DNA from: an uncultured virus (IMG/VR IMGVR_UViG_3300034110_001238)
Taxonomy: Duplodnaviria; Heunggongvirae; Uroviricota; Caudoviricetes
Direction: 5' to 3' (one strand)
IMG/VR virus record: IMGVR_UViG_3300034110_001238
Length of the DNA stretch: 22,466 nucleotides
Below, piece after piece: positions 10,757 to 19,806 of this stretch. A program made the position numbers and the translations under genes. Each line of letters begins with the position of its first letter. Positions within the stretch are counted from its first letter, which is position 1. Below the pieces are notes generated by a model. It had not been told where the DNA came from. It was given only the letters and a program-made list of their open reading frames with translations, and searched no databases.

Positions 10757-11149
10757 ATGGAATTTCTAGACAAAGCACTATTTGAAAAAGACTTAGAATC
10801 CATAGCACTTTGGCTTAATGTTGAAAGTGTGAGCCATGTTGACGTAAAAATAAAGAAAATCAGTATCAGTTTGTTTGAAAAACAAATCAATGAAATGGAA
10901 GATTCCTATAAAGAATTTCCGCTTGAAAAAAAACGTACCCAAAAAATCTTTGATAAACTCAACAATGGCGAAATGCCTCAACCTATCTATGTAGGTAAAG
11001 ATGATCCTGATAACTTCATCATGGAAGGTCGTCATCGTATTGTCGCCTTTAAATGGTTTGGCCTCAATGAAATCATAGTAGCCGAAGTATCAGAACTAAA
11101 ACCAGAACTCAAATTAGAAGCTAAACCACACAAAAAATTTAAACCTTAA
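10757..11149 (+). CDS. ParB/Sulfiredoxin-like N-terminal domain protein (stand-alone, 130 aa)
   Basis: PQPIYV...FIMEGRHRIVA matches the ParB/Srx PI.V...I.dG.HR..A motif; GGAGG SD. Confidence 0.75.
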   Translation: MEFLDKALFEKDLESIALWLNVESVSHVDVKIKKISISLFEKQINEMEDSYKEFPLEKKRTQKIFDKLNNGEMPQPIYVGKDDPDNFIMEGRHRIVAFKWFGLNEIIVAEVSELKPELKLEAKPHKKFKP

Positions 11150-13108: not shown

Positions 13109-14545
13109 TTAAGCTTTGAAGGTTAAGATAGGACTAAATTTAGCAATAACTGAAACAGTCTTTTCATCCACTTGTGATTGAATGACTGGGCCAATCTCTT
13201 TGTAAGCTCCCGGTGCTTCTTCAATCAAACGTTCTTCTTTCAATGTAATACATTCAACACGGTCCAAACCCAGTATGCTTTTGTCTTTTTTAGCTTTATA
13301 TGAAATCTCATTTCTGGAAATACTTCTCCCAGCCCCGTGGCTAGCTGAATTAATCCAGCTTTCATTACCTAATCCACTCAACATATAGCTGTCATGTCCC
13401 ATACTCCCCGGAATTAAAAGATCTTGTCCTGCATGGGCGGGTGTTGCTCCTTTTCTGTGAACATTACCGATATCTTCTTTTAAAACAATATTATGTGGAA
13501 CGTCAACCAACAAGGAACAATCTACATTGCCAAATACTTCCATTGTGCGTTGTCTTACGAGTTCTGCAATCAAAGCTCTATTTAAGGTCGCATAATGAGA
13601 CGCACTATGCATTGCAGCCATATAATCATCAACACCTTCACCATAGATAGGGAATATCTTGCTGTCTGGATGTTTATGTCCAGTAGGCCATTTTTGTTTA
13701 GCTTTATCCGCCCAACGAGTACCTACATAGAAACCTACATCGCGTGAACCTGTGTGAATCATTACCACCAGTTGACCAACTTTGATACCATACTCATACG
13801 CTTTCTGTCTATCAGTGATTTCAGTCACTACCTGCAACTCACAAAAATGATTGCCACCGCCTAATGTTCCCATTGAAGGATCTCTAATAAGATCTCTACT
13901 CATGTTTTGTAAAGCTTCTGGGGCAAAGCTTGAATTTCCTTTTTCAAAAGATGATGAATGTAACTTGTAGATTTCTTTTTCAATTTGTTGATAATCTATT
14001 TTCTGAAAAATACCTTCTTGCTTACTGTTTCTCATCGTTTCAAAAAAATCACCAACACCATTATCAAATAATGCTTTCATAGCATAAGGTGTCACTGGAA
14101 TGTTTCTTGTACCTTCCAACAAGTCGCCTTTAAGTTTTTTCACCCATTGTTCTTTATTTGCCATGAACTTGTCATAGGTTAAGTCAAGTTTGTGCAATCT
14201 CATACCACAATTGATATCTGTACCGATAGCTTGTGGAATCACCATGTCGTGACTGGTCACTACGACACTGCCTACTGGAATCGTGCTACCTGTGTGGAAG
14301 TCGGGTGTTGCACAAGAACATTTCACATGTCCACCGTCTGGATGTTGAATTTTTGCAAAATCCATAAGCTGATGAATAGCCTTCTCTTCAATAGGGAATG
14401 TGTCTGGCATTAATATTTTTGATTCTAAGCCTACGTCATTGGTAGATTTAACACTTAACACGTTAGGACTTTCACGATCAATCAATAAACCACTTTTTTG
14501 TAGTTTTTGTTGAATACGTTTAAACGGAATTTGTTTGTTTTTCAT
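13109..14545 (-). CDS. rtcB: RtcB family RNA 3'-phosphate/2',3'-cyclic phosphate-5'-OH ligase (478 aa; start revised from TTG 14614)
   Basis: All hallmark motifs present: PDFHTG..IPVG, GTDINCGMR, GTLGGGNHFCE, HTGSR, PHN, HRKGAT, PGSMG, SASHGAGR (guanylylated His), EEAPGAYK; GAGG SD 8 nt before ATG 14545. Confidence 0.96.
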   Translation of the reverse strand: MKNKQIPFKRIQQKLQKSGLLIDRESPNVLSVKSTNDVGLESKILMPDTFPIEEKAIHQLMDFAKIQHPDGGHVKCSCATPDFHTGSTIPVGSVVVTSHDMVIPQAIGTDINCGMRLHKLDLTYDKFMANKEQWVKKLKGDLLEGTRNIPVTPYAMKALFDNGVGDFFETMRNSKQEGIFQKIDYQQIEKEIYKLHSSSFEKGNSSFAPEALQNMSRDLIRDPSMGTLGGGNHFCELQVVTEITDRQKAYEYGIKVGQLVVMIHTGSRDVGFYVGTRWADKAKQKWPTGHKHPDSKIFPIYGEGVDDYMAAMHSASHYATLNRALIAELVRQRTMEVFGNVDCSLLVDVPHNIVLKEDIGNVHRKGATPAHAGQDLLIPGSMGHDSYMLSGLGNESWINSASHGAGRSISRNEISYKAKKDKSILGLDRVECITLKEERLIEEAPGAYKEIGPVIQSQVDEKTVSVIAKFSPILTFKA

Positions 14546-14546
14546 G

Positions 14547-14629
14547 ATACTGGCCTCTGATTTTTTAGATAAAGTATTACCTCGGAAATATTCCGATAAA
14601 ATTATCACACTCAATCAGCAGCCAGCTAT
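14547..14629 (-). promoter_or_regulatory. Structured 5' UTR of rtcB sequestering the SD (candidate cis-regulatory RNA)
   Basis: Nested helices: CUGGCU-G-CUGAUU with AAUCAG-A-GGCCAG, GAUAA/UUAUC, and apical UCGGAA-UAU-UUCCGA. Confidence 0.6.
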
Positions 14630-16236: not shown

Positions 16237-16461
16237 TTAATAAAATCCTCGAAAAGTCCTATCATTGTCGTCATTATTAGACTTTGGTTTTGGTGTGGCT
16301 ATATTATCGCTTGGTTCCGTTTTTGAACTGGATGGTGTTGTTCTCGATACAGTCTTTGATTTTTTGCTTTCTTCTTTCTTATGACTTGAAGAACTTGATG
16401 ATGTTTTAGCTTTTTCTATTTTTGGCGTATTCAAATAGCCATAATCGTCGCAATCACTCAT
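16237..16461 (-). CDS. Small low-complexity Ser/Lys-rich protein (74 aa), probably disordered
   Basis: ATG 16461 (MSDCDDYGY) 7 nt after GAGAGG SD; ends at the bidirectional terminator. Confidence 0.65.
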   Translation of the reverse strand: MSDCDDYGYLNTPKIEKAKTSSSSSSHKKEESKKSKTVSRTTPSSSKTEPSDNIATPKPKSNNDDNDRTFRGFY

Positions 16462-16509
16462 AATCACACCTCTCTTATTTAATGTAGATACATTTTAATT
16501 ATTAACAGT

Positions 16510-16986
16510 TTATTTTATTTCAATTGTTTTGAAGTAGTCAGCTAAATCACATGAACCAGATTCATAAACAAAACCTCTACCAACAAGATCTTTAAAGACA
16601 TCAAGAGCAAATATTTTCTCATCTTCATCTAATTGAATTGCAAATGTATTTTCAGCAATCTCAGCAAGATAATAAGGCGTAAAATGATTAACCAAGTATT
16701 GCATGTGAGCTTCAGCATTATGAAGCTCATCAGAAATGAAAACGCCAAACCCCGGTTGGTCAGAATCATCATCGTCTAATTCTGTATCTGTAAACTTTAT
16801 TTTTGCAAACTCCTGTGCTGTCATCCCATTTTTATCGGCTAAGAAATAAAATCCGATATAGTTGGGGACAGCTTCAAATCCCGCAGCATTTGGATTGACA
16901 TCAAGATCTTTAAACAAGTAGTCATCAACAATTTATCGTGCCAGTTTAAGATCAGATTCTTTAAATTTTAACATTTTAACTTTTAT
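16510..16986 (-). pseudogene. Acidic hypothetical protein gene with an in-frame stop near its 5' end (track ORF 16510..16917 is its 3' part)
   Basis: Frame reads ATA-AAA-GTT-AAA-ATG...MLKFKESDLKLAR*IVDDYLFKDLDVNP, with TAA at 16935-16933; SD GAGGA sits 6 nt from the ATA; the track TTG start lacks an SD. Confidence 0.6.
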
Positions 16987-17010
16987 ATAAAATCCTCACA
17001 TTATGGCTTA

Positions 17011-17039
17011 ATTTTAACATTTATTAACAAAGTTGTCAA
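17011..17039 (-). promoter_or_regulatory. Sigma70-like promoter for the 16986/16461 unit
   Basis: TTGACA-17bp-TAAAAT with TGn extension. Confidence 0.7.
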
Positions 17040-17084
17040 TTTGTTTAACATCTACTATATTTTCAAGCCATCAGATTATTTAAC

Positions 17085-17114
17085 TTGACTTCTTAATAAA
17101 CAAAGAGCTATAAT
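17085..17114 (+). promoter_or_regulatory. Sigma70-like promoter of the leader-aspS transcript
   Basis: TTGACT-18bp-TATAAT. Confidence 0.7.
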
Positions 17115-17137
17115 AGAAGAATATAGAGGATTATTTT

Positions 17138-17209
17138 ATGACTATTCGTTTTATCGCTGACAATAATGATAATTTTGCACAATTGAGTGTCGGATTATCT
17201 GTGGCGTAA
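17138..17209 (+). CDS. Asp/Asn-rich attenuator leader peptide (23 aa, MTIRFIADNNDNFAQLSVGLSVA)
   Basis: GAGGA SD (17126-17130) 7 nt before the ATG; control codons GAC AAT AAT GAT AAT at 17159-17173; directly upstream of a terminator and aspS. Confidence 0.85.
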   Translation: MTIRFIADNNDNFAQLSVGLSVA

Positions 17210-17227
17210 AAAAGTCGAAGATAACAC

Positions 17228-17255
17228 AAAGGCACTCACAAGAGTGCCTTTTTTT
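17228..17255 (+). terminator. Attenuator terminator (3:4 helix) upstream of aspS
   Basis: AAAGGCACTC-ACAA-GAGTGCCTTT plus a T7 run; its 5' arm GGCACTCA can alternatively pair with leader TGAGTGTC (17184-17191). Confidence 0.85.
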
Positions 17256-17307
17256 GTGCCCTAATTTTAACAATGCTTAGCCCTAACTTAACTAACGGAG
17301 ATTCATC

Positions 17308-18576
17308 ATGAAAATTAAAACAAGTCAAATCACAAGCTACATTGGTCAAACCATTACCATGCATTTAACACTGGAAGCCTTACGCGACCAGAAACATCTG
17401 CAATTCTTAATTGGTGGAGACAAATCAGGTAAACTTCAACTGGTTGTACAGAAATCAAAAGTTGAACAACATGCCGAAATATCAGAGCTTTTAGAAGGTT
17501 CTACATTTTCTGTGACTGGATTGATTGTGGAAGCGAAACAAAGCAAAACGTTTGGTGTAGAGATGCAAGTTGACTCAATTATTATCCATTCTAAATCATT
17601 ACCACGTCCAATTATGGAGGACTCATCTATTGACCTTCGTTTTGACTACCGTGTTGTGGACTTGAAACATCCAAAAAGACAACTGATGTTACAATTACGT
17701 TCTGCGTTCGAAGCTGGCTGCAGAGAATACTTATTACAAAAAGAGTTTACTGAAATTCACACACCTAAGCTAATGGCTCAGGCCAGTGAGAGTGGTTCAC
17801 AAGTTTTCGAGGTAAAATATTTCGATAAAAAAGCTTATTTAAGCCAAAGTCCACAGTTCTACAAGCAATGTTCAATTGCCAGTGGGCTGGAAGCAATTTT
17901 TGAAATAGGGCCAGTTTTCCGTGCAGAAGAATCACACTCAACCAGACACATGACAGAGTTTACTGGATTTGACGTTGAGTTTGCATGGTGCTTTGAAACA
18001 GCAGACGTTATGAAACTTGAAGAAGATATCTTAACTTATGCATTTTCAAAGTTGGAACCATTCAAAGAAAAGGTAATGGAACTCTATGGTATAGAATTGA
18101 TGACAAAGCCTACTGTTCAATATATAACCTTAGCCGAAGCTAAAAAAATCTTAGCTGATGAGTTAAAACTATCGGTCGGTCAAGACTTACCAGACGAAGG
18201 TGAAAGGTTGTTGTATGAAAAATTAGGCAAAGACTTGATATTTATTTCAGACTATCCGATAGGCAAGCGTCCATTTTATCATATGAGAGAAACGGAAAAA
18301 GGAACAACCAAGAGCTTTGACTTGATATTCAAAGGGATTGAAATCACAACTGGTGCTATTCGTGAGCATAGAATTGACATCTTAGAACAACAAGCCATTG
18401 AAAAAGGTATTCAACCAGAGTCAATACACCACTATTTGGACAGTTTCAAATATGGTTGCCCACCACACGGTGGTTTTGGACTGGGTATCGAACGAGTAAT
18501 TGCAAAACTGTTGGGATTGGGGTCAGTGAAAGAGGTAAGCTTCGTGCCACGAGATCCAGACAGATTGACACCATAA
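17308..18576 (+). CDS. aspS: Aspartyl-tRNA synthetase, short archaeal/eukaryote-like type (possibly non-discriminating tRNA(Asp/Asn) ligase)
   Basis: 422 aa; OB anticodon domain (LRDQK..QF...D.SG..Q.V), motif 1 EIHTPKL, AYLSQSPQFYKQ (AspRS-type, not AsnRS xSxQL), motif 2 FRAEESHSTRH.TEF, motif 3 PPHGGFGLGIER; too short for the bacterial GAD insertion; GGAG SD. Confidence 0.93.
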   Translation: MKIKTSQITSYIGQTITMHLTLEALRDQKHLQFLIGGDKSGKLQLVVQKSKVEQHAEISELLEGSTFSVTGLIVEAKQSKTFGVEMQVDSIIIHSKSLPRPIMEDSSIDLRFDYRVVDLKHPKRQLMLQLRSAFEAGCREYLLQKEFTEIHTPKLMAQASESGSQVFEVKYFDKKAYLSQSPQFYKQCSIASGLEAIFEIGPVFRAEESHSTRHMTEFTGFDVEFAWCFETADVMKLEEDILTYAFSKLEPFKEKVMELYGIELMTKPTVQYITLAEAKKILADELKLSVGQDLPDEGERLLYEKLGKDLIFISDYPIGKRPFYHMRETEKGTTKSFDLIFKGIEITTGAIREHRIDILEQQAIEKGIQPESIHHYLDSFKYGCPPHGGFGLGIERVIAKLLGLGSVKEVSFVPRDPDRLTP

Positions 18577-18584
18577 TAGTAGAC

Positions 18585-18609
18585 AAAAGCCTCAAAAGAG
18601 GCTTTTTTT
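18585..18609 (+). terminator. Intrinsic terminator after aspS
   Basis: AAAAGCCTC-AAAA-GAGGCTTTTTTT. Confidence 0.85.
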
Positions 18610-18611
18610 CA

Positions 18612-18640
18612 TTGACTTAATAATGTAAAAAGTGTAATAT
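18612..18640 (+). promoter_or_regulatory. Sigma70-like promoter
   Basis: TTGACT-17bp-TAATAT. Confidence 0.6.
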
Positions 18641-18683
18641 CCTAAATCTAATTATATTAGTGATACTTATATGAGGTTTTAAA

Positions 18684-19103
18684 ATGACAGAGACAAAAGA
18701 AAAAAGTATTGAGGAAATATTGGAAGAGCTTAGCTTTGCATTCGCTTCACCCGAAGCGAGTGAATTCACAACCTATATTGCTGAAAAAAACTATCGTAAA
18801 GCAAAGAATATGCTACTCAAGAAAATAGCTGCTGATGAAGCTACTCTTGTTATTAATCATTTCAAAAGTGAAATCAAAAAGAAATTTAACCTTGTTGAAA
18901 TGAGTTATGAAGAATTCAACATCAAATTCCCATACACTGGAGTTAATAGCAAGCAACAAATCGTTGTTAACTACAGAGGTGAAATGGTATCTGCTTATCC
19001 AAAAAAAGGCTATATTTATCCAGATGGTTGGATTATATATGTTGGACATAATGAGGTAGCAATAAAAGATGTTGATCAAATATGGTTAGTTGAGAAAAAA
19101 TAG
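18684..19103 (+). CDS. Hypothetical protein (139 aa)
   Basis: GAGG SD and own promoter. Confidence 0.85.
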   Translation: MTETKEKSIEEILEELSFAFASPEASEFTTYIAEKNYRKAKNMLLKKIAADEATLVINHFKSEIKKKFNLVEMSYEEFNIKFPYTGVNSKQQIVVNYRGEMVSAYPKKGYIYPDGWIIYVGHNEVAIKDVDQIWLVEKK

Positions 19104-19117
19104 TAAATTCTTAAAAA

Positions 19118-19146
19118 TTGATTATCATGCATTGTTTTGTTATAAT
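19118..19146 (+). promoter_or_regulatory. Sigma70-like promoter
   Basis: TTGATT-17bp-TATAAT with TGn extension. Confidence 0.7.
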
Positions 19147-19164
19147 GAATAAATAGGAGAGCTT

Positions 19165-19806
19165 ATGAAAAAACTATTTATTTTTGATATTGATGATGTT
19201 ATTTACGATTTAAAATCAATGATGTATGAAGCATTAAAAGAACACACTGGTAAAGATATTCATCATGATACATGGAAAACATTGAACATGAATGAAGTTT
19301 TTGATTTGGACTACAAAGAAGTGGTTGATGTATTTTTAAAACACGATGTGTTGAGAAGTGGGCAGTTAAATTTTGGAATCTATCCATTACTTGATTACTT
19401 AAAAAAGAACAATATTGAAACAAAAGCAGTTACCGCACGCGGTTGGCATCCAGAAGCTGACCAGATTACACAAGCTTTTTTTGAAGAACATGATATTCAA
19501 ATGGGCGGTATCAAAGTAATTAAGTATACTGAGAAAAAGTCAGAATACATCGCTCAACTCACTGATTACAATATTGTAGGTTATGTGGATGATAGCGATA
19601 GACACATTATGGAAACAAAACTGGCATGTCAAGGTAATGTTAAAAACTATTACATTCAAGACCAACCTTGGAACAGACATGTGGAACTTGATACTGGTAT
19701 GCAGAGAATTAACGATATATCAGAAATAAGAAACCATCTTGAAATCTATCTTGGATCTGAGAAAAAGATTGAACCTATTCGAAGTATAAAATTTAAACAT
19801 CAATAA
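19165..19806 (+). CDS. HAD-superfamily 5'(3')-deoxyribonucleotidase-like phosphatase (NT5C type)
   Basis: Motif I FIFDIDDV, motif II VTAR, motif III K (EKKS), motif IV YVDDS, and the C-terminal QPWN typical of the family; AGGAG SD. Confidence 0.85.
   Translation: MKKLFIFDIDDVIYDLKSMMYEALKEHTGKDIHHDTWKTLNMNEVFDLDYKEVVDVFLKHDVLRSGQLNFGIYPLLDYLKKNNIETKAVTARGWHPEADQITQAFFEEHDIQMGGIKVIKYTEKKSEYIAQLTDYNIVGYVDDSDRHIMETKLACQGNVKNYYIQDQPWNRHVELDTGMQRINDISEIRNHLEIYLGSEKKIEPIRSIKFKHQ

Follow-up and report, generated by a model that had tools for sequence, protein, structure and literature searches.

The 22,466-nucleotide (nt) stretch of DNA considered here, the IMG/VR record IMGVR_UViG_3300034110_001238 of an uncultured virus (hereafter the window), carries a gene for an aspartyl-tRNA synthetase, aspS, whose promoter is separated from its start codon by a very small open reading frame (ORF) with five consecutive Asp or Asn codons and by a strong intrinsic terminator. 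The question raised by this locus (17085-18609) is whether these parts act together to make the expression of the synthetase dependent on tRNA charging, as the initial annotation had proposed in describing a ribosome-dependent Asp/Asn attenuator. The proposal is supported by the conservation of the leader, the constraint on its sequence, its alternative helices and its folding under a modeled ribosome, and from these sequence comparisons and predictions we consider it likely that the element is a classical ribosome-mediated (leader-peptide) transcription attenuator gating an archaeal-type, probably non-discriminating aspartyl-tRNA synthetase (AspRS).

All features of the unit lie on the plus strand. 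The sigma-70-type promoter (17085..17114) consists of a -35 box TTGACT (17085-17090), an 18-nt spacer and a -10 box TATAAT (17109-17114); it agrees with the consensus at 11 of 12 positions, is the joint-best of the 16 promoter-like sites scanned in 16400-19200, and would start transcription near 17121. The Shine-Dalgarno sequence AGAGG (17125..17129) lies 8 nt before the ATG (17138) of the leader ORF (17138..17209), which comprises 23 codons, encodes the peptide MTIRFIADNNDNFAQLSVGLSVA and ends with TAA at 17207-17209. Both direct reading of the sequence and a codon-run scan place the control codons GAC AAT AAT GAT AAT (D N N D N) at 17159..17173. The intrinsic terminator (17228..17255) is formed by a stem of 10 pairs (17228-17251, AAAGGCACUC / GAGUGCCUUU) with the loop ACAA and by a run of seven T (17249-17255), 52 nt before the aspS ATG at 17308, and ends no other gene, since the gene upstream is divergent. 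The spacer between the terminator and aspS (17256..17307) holds the aspS Shine-Dalgarno sequence GGAG (17297-17300), and the promoter scan of 16400-19200 listed no promoter-like site between the two. The transcription unit is closed by a second intrinsic terminator, identified by the terminator scan at 18585..18609. Direct reading thus found the promoter, the Shine-Dalgarno sequence, the 23-codon ORF, the five Asp/Asn codons and the terminator before aspS each at the position given in the initial annotation.

A chance origin of these features is unlikely. Among the 222 small ORFs of 12-45 codons that start with ATG in the six frames of the window, the leader ORF is the single one with at least five consecutive Asp/Asn codons, and runs of this kind number just two across all six frames of the 22.5 kb. 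The 143-nt leader has a minimum free energy of -40.4 kcal/mol (z = -4.45), a stability that none of 200 shuffled sequences reached.

Homologous loci were gathered from IMG/VR, the GTDB species genomes and metagenomes. By one fixed detection rule, a D/N leader and a terminator were found upstream of the gene in 23 of the 25 loci with at least 59% identity, against 2 of the 142 loci with 47% identity or less, so that the conserved D/N-rich upstream ORF expected among close homologs is indeed kept together with its terminator. The two close loci missed by the rule have NN only. As to the two distant matches, L005 is doubtful, and L127 (AspRS 47% identical; leader at L127:1841-1948, peptide MQSFSRNRRNNNMSPLGDRIVFGR) is visibly homologous, which extends the leader family past the clade of at least 59% identity. 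Within this clade, each of the 32 upstream regions of at least 330 nt holds an ORF of 23-26 codons (longer if an upstream ATG is taken) with an Asn or Asn/Asp run, followed by a terminator; they collapse to 26 distinct leaders, all of which have the N/D run at the equivalent place. The leaders on AT-rich contigs read DNNDN, NDNNDN, DNNDNN, DNNNNN, DDNNN, NDNNNND or NNNDNN, and leaders with NNN or NN were found on the chromosomes of Pandoraea communis, Paraburkholderia phenazinium, B. multivorans and two further Burkholderia/Paraburkholderia genomes. The GC-rich Burkholderiaceae copies retain AAT AAT AAT, and the L088 and L125 leaders have two Asn codons only. Asn is thus the common denominator of the leader family, with Asp codons added only in the AT-rich lineage, and the distribution indicates that the leader belongs to the aspS gene and that leader and gene have travelled together between giant AT-rich replicons and Burkholderiaceae. 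The association with a virus-like element drawn in the initial annotation is therefore not specific, as the same leader and gene also stand on Burkholderia, Paraburkholderia and Pandoraea chromosomes. Across 151 genomes of the family of Pandoraea, a model built from the Asp/Asn leaders (R1) returned the centre genome only, with strict filters and 21 candidates scored per genome.

The leader is far more conserved than the synonymous sites of aspS. In the relatives L001, L107 and L110, the leader ORF is identical to that of the window at 72, 70 and 67 of 72 positions, the terminator at 29, 30 and 27 of 30 and the spacer to aspS at 47, 46 and 40 of 50, respectively, while identity at aspS third codon positions is 73%, 56% and 46%; in the more distant AT-rich relatives these third positions are near saturation and the leader is almost unchanged. 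The synonymous positions of the leader are conserved as well, which indicates constraint at the RNA level. The AGAGG Shine-Dalgarno sequence is identical in all three of these relatives, and the AT-rich relatives likewise show a TTGAC-type -35 box and a TATAAT-like -10 box at the corresponding upstream position. Contigs of relatives from four public sequencing runs, which carry no inference for the stretches without cover, have many differences from the window in aspS, and in the leader their differences are confined to the spacer between Shine-Dalgarno sequence and ATG (17137), the spacer between stop codon and terminator, and the terminator loop.

The alternative helices of a classical attenuator can be laid over this sequence. 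Segment 1 (17157..17180), the 5′ strand of the 1:2 helix, includes CUGACA (17157-62), GAUAAUUU (17168-75) and GCAC (17177-80); segment 2 (17184..17200) can pair with segment 1 or, as antiterminator, with segment 3 (17219..17238), which is made up of AGAUAA (17219-24) and the terminator 5′ arm GGCACUCA (17231-38). The helices proposed in the initial annotation pair as written, namely CUGACA (17157-62) with UGUCGG (17188-93), UGAGUGUC (17184-91) with GGCACUCA (17231-38), and UUAUCU (17195-200) with AGAUAA (17219-24). For the 1:2 helix, the proposed register is possible and overlaps the control codons, but folding favours a different one, GAUAAUUU (17168-75) with GGAUUAUC (17192-99) plus GCAC (17177-80) with GUGU (17187-90), so that two alternative registers are available in the window, both of them over the control codons. 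Between the segment that follows the codon run and the 5′ half of the terminator, no duplex scores better than the 2:3 pairing (17184-91 with 17231-38 and 17195-200 with 17219-24); at -14.0 kcal/mol it was equaled by 4 of 500 shuffled sequences, and in 22 of the 26 leaders the corresponding best duplex was reached by no more than 8 of 500.

Segment 2 of the window, GAGUGUC, resembles the 3′ arm of the terminator, GAGUGCC, and the same resemblance recurs with other sequences: GAGUGUC and GAGUGUC in L109, AGAGUGCU and AGAGUGCU in L118, and GGUGCU and GGUGCC in L115. Segment 2 thus copies the terminator 3′ arm across lineages, whatever its sequence. Across the leaders, the Asn codons of the 1:2 helix pair with a downstream AUUAU-type segment, and AAC codons face a G (L111, L118). 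In the GC-richer leaders (n = 12), GCCUUUGG pairs with CCAAAGGC at the base of the terminator stem to form the antiterminator. Within the 3:4 terminator itself, the RNAalifold consensus has compensatory changes in 4 of 9 pairs.

The effect of a ribosome was modeled by folding transcripts cut before the 3′ arm of the terminator, with every position as far as 13 nt beyond the first A-site base, an assumed footprint, kept single-stranded. The predicted switch was obtained for the window: the terminator 5′ arm was paired at 1.00 with the ribosome on the first control codon and at 0.02 with the ribosome at the stop codon. All 14 AT-rich leaders behaved in this way, with pairing of 0.71-1.00 in the stalled state versus 0.01-0.24 at the stop. 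On the basis of this anatomy and comparison, transcription would begin near 17121 and a ribosome would translate the 23-codon leader. When Asn-tRNA(Asn) or Asp-tRNA(Asp) is scarce, the ribosome would stall on GAC-AAT-AAT-GAT-AAT (17159-17173) and cover segment 1, leaving segment 2 (17184-17200) to pair with segment 3 (17219-17238); the terminator 5′ arm would then be sequestered and RNA polymerase would enter aspS. When charged tRNA is plentiful, the ribosome would reach the TAA at 17207 and cover segment 2 in its 3′ part together with the beginning of segment 3; the terminator at 17228-17255 would then form and transcription would stop.

The identity of the enzyme gives this circuit its sense. 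The ORF at 17308..18576 encodes a class II synthetase of 422 aa from the D/K/N group (Pfam tRNA-synt_2, 2.1e-75), an archaeal-type AspRS (AspRS2). Its product passes the NF003483 model for aspartate--tRNA(Asn) ligase (427.3 bits, cut-off 353) and scores far under the cut-offs of both models for asparaginyl-tRNA synthetase (AsnRS; asnS), and its closest solved structure is AspRS2 of Thermus thermophilus (PDB 1N9W, E = 9.7e-85). The gene called aspS by the initial annotation is thus a synthetase gene, as stated, with the product now better described as an archaeal-type, probably non-discriminating AspRS. By its family assignment, the enzyme should charge tRNA(Asp) and, very probably, tRNA(Asn) as well, the latter reaction being the one that opens the indirect route to Asn-tRNA(Asn). 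An enzyme of this type would account for the sensing of Asn codons by the leader, and since it would serve both tRNAs, more of it would relieve exactly the shortage that is sensed.

The gene content of the carriers fits this view. In the three Burkholderiaceae genomes that have the leader and the gene, AsnRS was above cut-off in none, the best match of the model being AspRS2 itself, whereas GatB was above cut-off in all three, so that Asn-tRNA(Asn) must come by the indirect route. A bacterial-type AspRS was also above cut-off in all three genomes, which makes the archaeal-type AspRS2 gene an extra AspRS gene. Induction of a tRNA(Asn)-charging AspRS by stalling on Asn codons would therefore close a sensible feedback loop, and the Asp codons added in the AT-rich lineage match the second substrate of the enzyme. 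Amino-acid usage across the window ORFs comes to Asn 6.6%, Asp 7.0% and Ile 7.9%, and AAT and GAT are common codons in its DNA of 30% G+C.

Several observations weigh against this interpretation. The truncated transcript of the window still favours the antiterminator without a ribosome (0.73, within a range of 0.01-1.00 for the AT-rich leaders), so that termination by default would depend on the 1:2 helix forming first. In the 12 GC-richer leaders, the two states were not separated by folding (arm pairing of 0.07-0.79 stalled versus 0.29-0.49 at the stop). Moreover, full-length equilibrium folds, computed for 14 leaders, keep the terminator at 0.50-1.00 in every masked state; with the terminator at least half-populated at equilibrium, the switch must be kinetic, decided during RNA synthesis, as in known attenuators. 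Contigs from two RNA libraries span the terminator into aspS (17095-17649 and 17102-17347) and so give weak support to the attenuator, but they are also compatible with carried-over DNA and hold neither transcript ends nor transcript levels. On the side of the enzyme, non-discrimination rests on family models, and the score with one of them, TIGR00458, is below its cut-off (343.4 against 368.4).

The test for covariation in the 2:3 and 3:4 helices called for by the initial annotation belongs to the same account: changes on both sides of pairs were found on fitted alignments, and covariation did not reach significance on unfitted sequences. Three structure strings (2:3; 1:2 in the register of the initial annotation plus 3:4; minimum-free-energy 1:2) were scored on a plain, unfitted MAFFT alignment of 7 sequences. 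In this alignment 90-98% of the cells were paired, against 25-58% in slid controls, with 1-2 pairs per string changed on both sides, and the covariation score was reached by 243, 40 and 133 of 500 shuffles. In the R2-fitted alignment of 23 leaders, the 2:3 structure had 84.6% of cells paired (slid controls 29-44%) and 7 of 13 pairs changed on both sides; in the R3-fitted alignment of 22 leaders, 1:2 plus 3:4 had 93.6% of cells paired (slid controls 39-56%; terminator part 99.5%) and 13 of 22 pairs changed on both sides. None of 500 shuffles reached the covariation score in either case, and these counts are to be read as support rather than proof, since a fitted alignment is biased toward the structure to which it was fitted. 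RNAalifold on plain MAFFT alignments returned the terminator only, or no pairs; the subgroups are out of register in these alignments.

The same design was found on other synthetase genes. A near-identical IMG/VR record of 181 kb was scanned for a short ORF plus terminator ahead of genes, and the scan picked all three synthetase genes found among its ORFs, those for AspRS, isoleucyl-tRNA synthetase (IleRS) and prolyl-tRNA synthetase (ProRS). The IleRS leader (L190:16382-16444, minus strand) encodes MKTLNTFVNSIIIIPKLPMS, with four consecutive Ile codons, and is preceded by a promoter and followed by a terminator; the IleRS gene itself (L190:13758-16283, minus strand) was identified with TIGR00392 (643.8, cut-off 621.4). 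The ProRS leader (L188:2224-2286, plus strand) encodes MKTNIALFKTIRPLPLMLGV, which includes PLP, and is followed by a terminator and by the gene of a short ProRS (L188:2396-3526) of 376 aa, without editing domain (TIGR00409 338.1, cut-off 306.7). Both leaders have antiterminator-type alternatives, and in the ProRS leader the terminator 5′ arm can pair with CAUGUUGGGCGU within the leader ORF. The R1 model also matches the Ile leader, at 40.8 bits, and from this match the Asp/Asn and Ile leaders may share a module. Upstream of the asparagine synthase gene of the same record (L187:8948-10804), neither a leader ORF nor a terminator was found; this gene encodes a glutamine-hydrolysing asparagine synthase (TIGR01536 324.6, cut-off 267.1).

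AspRS-like genes with 34-36% identity are also present in two GenBank genomes of uncultured phages, LR756502.1 (642 kb) and LR745206.1 (635 kb), and in both a leader with Asp codons and a strong terminator precede the gene: MRKIIKLKDDRYLWTDCLAD with KDDR in the former (L299:346-466) and MKNIRLNDDRFLLTNCKADW with NDDR in the latter (L300:349-468). The leader folds gave z = -5.2 and -7.5, respectively, and from one phage to the other segment 2 and the terminator arm vary in concert, CUGAC with GUCAG versus CUAAC with GUUAG. As a tentative extension, to which we give somewhat less than an even chance, giant AT-rich phage-like replicons would gate each of several synthetases by a leader with codons for its own amino acid (Asp/Asn in the case of AspRS2, Ile in that of IleRS and Pro in that of ProRS), reading the charging of host tRNA amino acid by amino acid and deploying their own synthetase only for the amino acid exhausted by an AT-rich, Asn/Asp/Ile-rich proteome. 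Under this reading, the recurrence of the design before the AspRS of the 635-642-kb phages would suggest a general, so far undescribed feature of huge phages.

Against a leader-peptide attenuator, one could hold that the promoter, the mini-ORF and the terminator make up a separate gene for a small RNA or a small protein, and that aspS is expressed by constitutive partial read-through without any sensing of amino acids. The unit does have its own promoter and strong terminator, the C-terminal half of the peptide is conserved too (for example, SPLGDRRLF in the GC-rich group), and the available portions of two reports on Sinorhizobium describe attenuator RNAs and leader peptides that can act in trans (PMC7968998, PMC6614838). 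A separate gene would leave unexplained that the N/D run is the sole feature of the peptide common to all lineages, that conservation extends to the synonymous positions of the leader, that segment 2 follows the terminator arm across lineages, that the unit always stands directly before the aspS gene and that IleRS and ProRS are preceded by the same arrangement with codons for their own amino acids, and we regard it as improbable. Little more can be said for an attenuator that depends on the ribosome and reports general translation capacity or nascent-peptide arrest instead of the charging of Asn- and Asp-tRNA, which we judge unlikely to a similar degree: AAT and GAT are indeed frequent at 30% G+C and two leaders, L088 and L125, make do with just two Asn codons, but runs of at least five D/N codons are as rare as two in the six frames of 22.5 kb, AAT AAT AAT is retained in the GC-rich Burkholderiaceae copies, and Ile and Pro codons take their place in the leaders of IleRS and ProRS on the same replicon.

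Two further explanations appear very improbable to us. The leader could be a relic that was acquired with the gene from a bacterium and has no function in the present replicon, as might be suggested by the presence of gene and leader in Burkholderiaceae and by the sequence upstream of the -35 box, which is wholly different and unrelated between the window and its closest relative, L001. A relic would not be expected to be better conserved than the gene, as the leader is in AT-rich relatives down to 70% protein identity, nor to keep its promoter, Shine-Dalgarno sequence and all helices intact. The terminator could also be controlled by a factor other than the ribosome, through a T-box-like contact with tRNA, a riboswitch or binding of AspRS; T-boxes control synthetase genes in Firmicutes, and E. 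coli thrS is autoregulated. This is opposed by the absence from the whole window of Rfam matches that reach gathering score, by the fact that the sole weak match is to a leader-peptide family (Phe_leader, 29.4 bits), and by the leader of about 135 nt being fully occupied by the ORF and the three helices. A leader-peptide attenuator that responds to Asn and Asp thus remains the likely reading of the locus.

As to its place among known systems, the enterobacterial trp, his, thr, leu and ilv leaders control biosynthetic operons by the 1:2 / 2:3 / 3:4 logic, and those of thr and ilv sense more than one amino acid; known leader-peptide attenuators cover few amino acids and, to our knowledge, no Asn or Asp leader is among the enterobacterial operon leaders. 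The window leader shares their logic but, by the Rfam search, no sequence relationship with them. In Firmicutes, the T-box leaders of aspS and asnS likewise provide more synthetase when the cognate tRNA is uncharged, and they do so without a ribosome, through direct RNA-RNA contact with the tRNA; the regulatory goal is the same, but the window leader has no T-box match in Rfam. We know of no attenuator described for Thermus thermophilus AspRS2, although no search was aimed at one. Here only the enzyme is comparable, being archaeal-type, about 422 aa long and called non-discriminating by its depositors (1N9W; transamidosome 3KFU).

Searching Rfam 15, no family was found at its gathering score in the whole window. 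The only family with any similarity to the leader is Phe_leader (RF01859), at 29.4 bits against a gathering score of 55, and since the match is mostly to the terminator, the leader is not a member of this family. T-box and riboswitch readings were dropped after a search in E-value mode, which gave only sub-threshold matches, mostly terminator-driven. The closest parallel in organization is the pheM-pheST leader of E. coli (RF01859), in which a peptide with tandem cognate codons, alternative hairpins and an intrinsic terminator likewise stand just ahead of a synthetase gene; it senses Phe, whereas the window leader would sense Asn/Asp and has an accessory archaeal-type AspRS as its target. Full-text literature searches, with supplements and subscription journals outside their scope, turned up neither an Asn/Asp leader peptide nor any leader peptide on a synthetase gene of a phage, so that the check on novelty called for by the initial annotation, in Rfam as in the literature, brought up no described Asn/Asp leader. 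The available portions of two papers report classical attenuators predicted upstream of trpS and leuS in Streptomyces (PMC1262725) and a His leader predicted upstream of hisS paralogs in bacilli (PMC2965389); as far as these portions go, these are likewise computational leader-peptide attenuators on synthetase genes beyond the enterobacterial model, for other amino acids and in other lineages. The words asparagine, aspS and asnS have 0 occurrences each in both papers.

The mechanism is thus a textbook one, and the Asn/Asp specificity and the AspRS target are not catalogued. An Asn/Asp leader on a non-discriminating AspRS would add a specificity to the attenuator class, would be independent regulatory evidence for an accessory enzyme in the indirect Asn-tRNA pathway, and would represent a compact natural sensor of Asn-tRNA charging. 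Should the carrier be a huge phage, the translation genes of phages would not simply be switched on but would be under the control of tRNA charging in the infected cell; this implication is based on the three cognate synthetase attenuators and on the Asp leaders in published huge phages, for which the timing and the mode of action of translation genes are an open question.

The nature of the replicon bears on this last point. The window has about 30% G+C, and most of its genes have their own Shine-Dalgarno sequence, TATAAT box and hairpin-plus-T terminator, which argues for bacterial-style expression. A Pfam family is lacking in 21 of its 23 ORFs, the exceptions being aspS and RtcB. The near-identical 181-kb stretch is classed by IMG/VR as a provirus (CheckV completeness 58%), and 48 of its 185 ORFs have a Pfam family; the set includes a Ser/Thr kinase, UvdE, Fpg, MGMT, GAPDH, AsnB, a ClpA-like ATPase, PTH2, Sir2, an Rnl1-phosphoesterase fusion, two OmpA-family proteins and HipA. 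Pfam searches of the 185 ORFs brought up no family for capsid, portal, terminase (PF03237 included) or tail, and PHROGs matched 8 of the 133 ORFs submitted, none with a structural family; the 181 kb are part of a larger replicon, and the absence of hallmarks there does not exclude a phage. Two ORFs of this record have their best GenBank-phage matches, at 40-56%, in Ralstonia/Xanthomonas/Stenotrophomonas jumbo phages and in an uncultured 635-kb phage. The window has no DNA match in GenBank phages, a 647-aa ORF has no phage match, and RtcB is less than 31% identical to phage copies. The best matches of the ClpA-like protein among species genomes, led by Gamma- and Betaproteobacteria, reach only 39-47% identity, and no GTDB species genome has a close relative of the AT-rich window DNA. 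The flanks of 11 AT-rich relatives are likewise rich in orphan genes, with a Pfam family lacking in 28 of their 34 ORFs. The contigs that hold close relatives (L106, L109, L110 and the proteins P0006 and P0011) measure 1.86, 1.54, 0.60, 1.92 and 1.84 Mb, and 1.5-1.9 Mb exceeds any phage known to us. The phage nature of the element, called phage-like in the initial annotation, is thus not shown, with no capsid, portal or terminase found and relatives on contigs of 1.5-1.9 Mb; "phage-like" is a plausible description of the replicon.

Gene content changes around a constant aspS cassette. Compared with L001, the window has an extra 560 bp (16499-17056), and its 135-aa ORF at 16510-16917 (minus strand) is absent from L001 and L106. 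In the 181-kb record, about 4 kb (L185:1192-5278) with a 583-aa ORF, a DUF3892 protein and a Ser/Thr kinase lie between aspS and a 139-aa ORF. Genes of RNA-repair type surround aspS in the window (13109-14614, minus strand; 19165-19806, plus strand; 10757-11149, plus strand), comprising an RtcB ligase, a polynucleotide-kinase-like protein (phrog_420/415) and a weak nuclease match; to these the 181-kb record adds the Rnl1-phosphoesterase fusion and a 'Swiss Army Knife' HAD domain. The same record has two tRNA arrays (L188:17614-19500 and L192:16104-18247) with 25 genes, 11 of them for tRNA-Leu and 6 for tRNA-Ala, plus Arg, Met and Gln, and two odd tRNAs in these arrays have anticodon loops of 4 nt or 2 nt. 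Finally, six tandem ORFs of 262-285 aa without Pfam family (L190:3613-8623, minus strand) resemble a paralog array.

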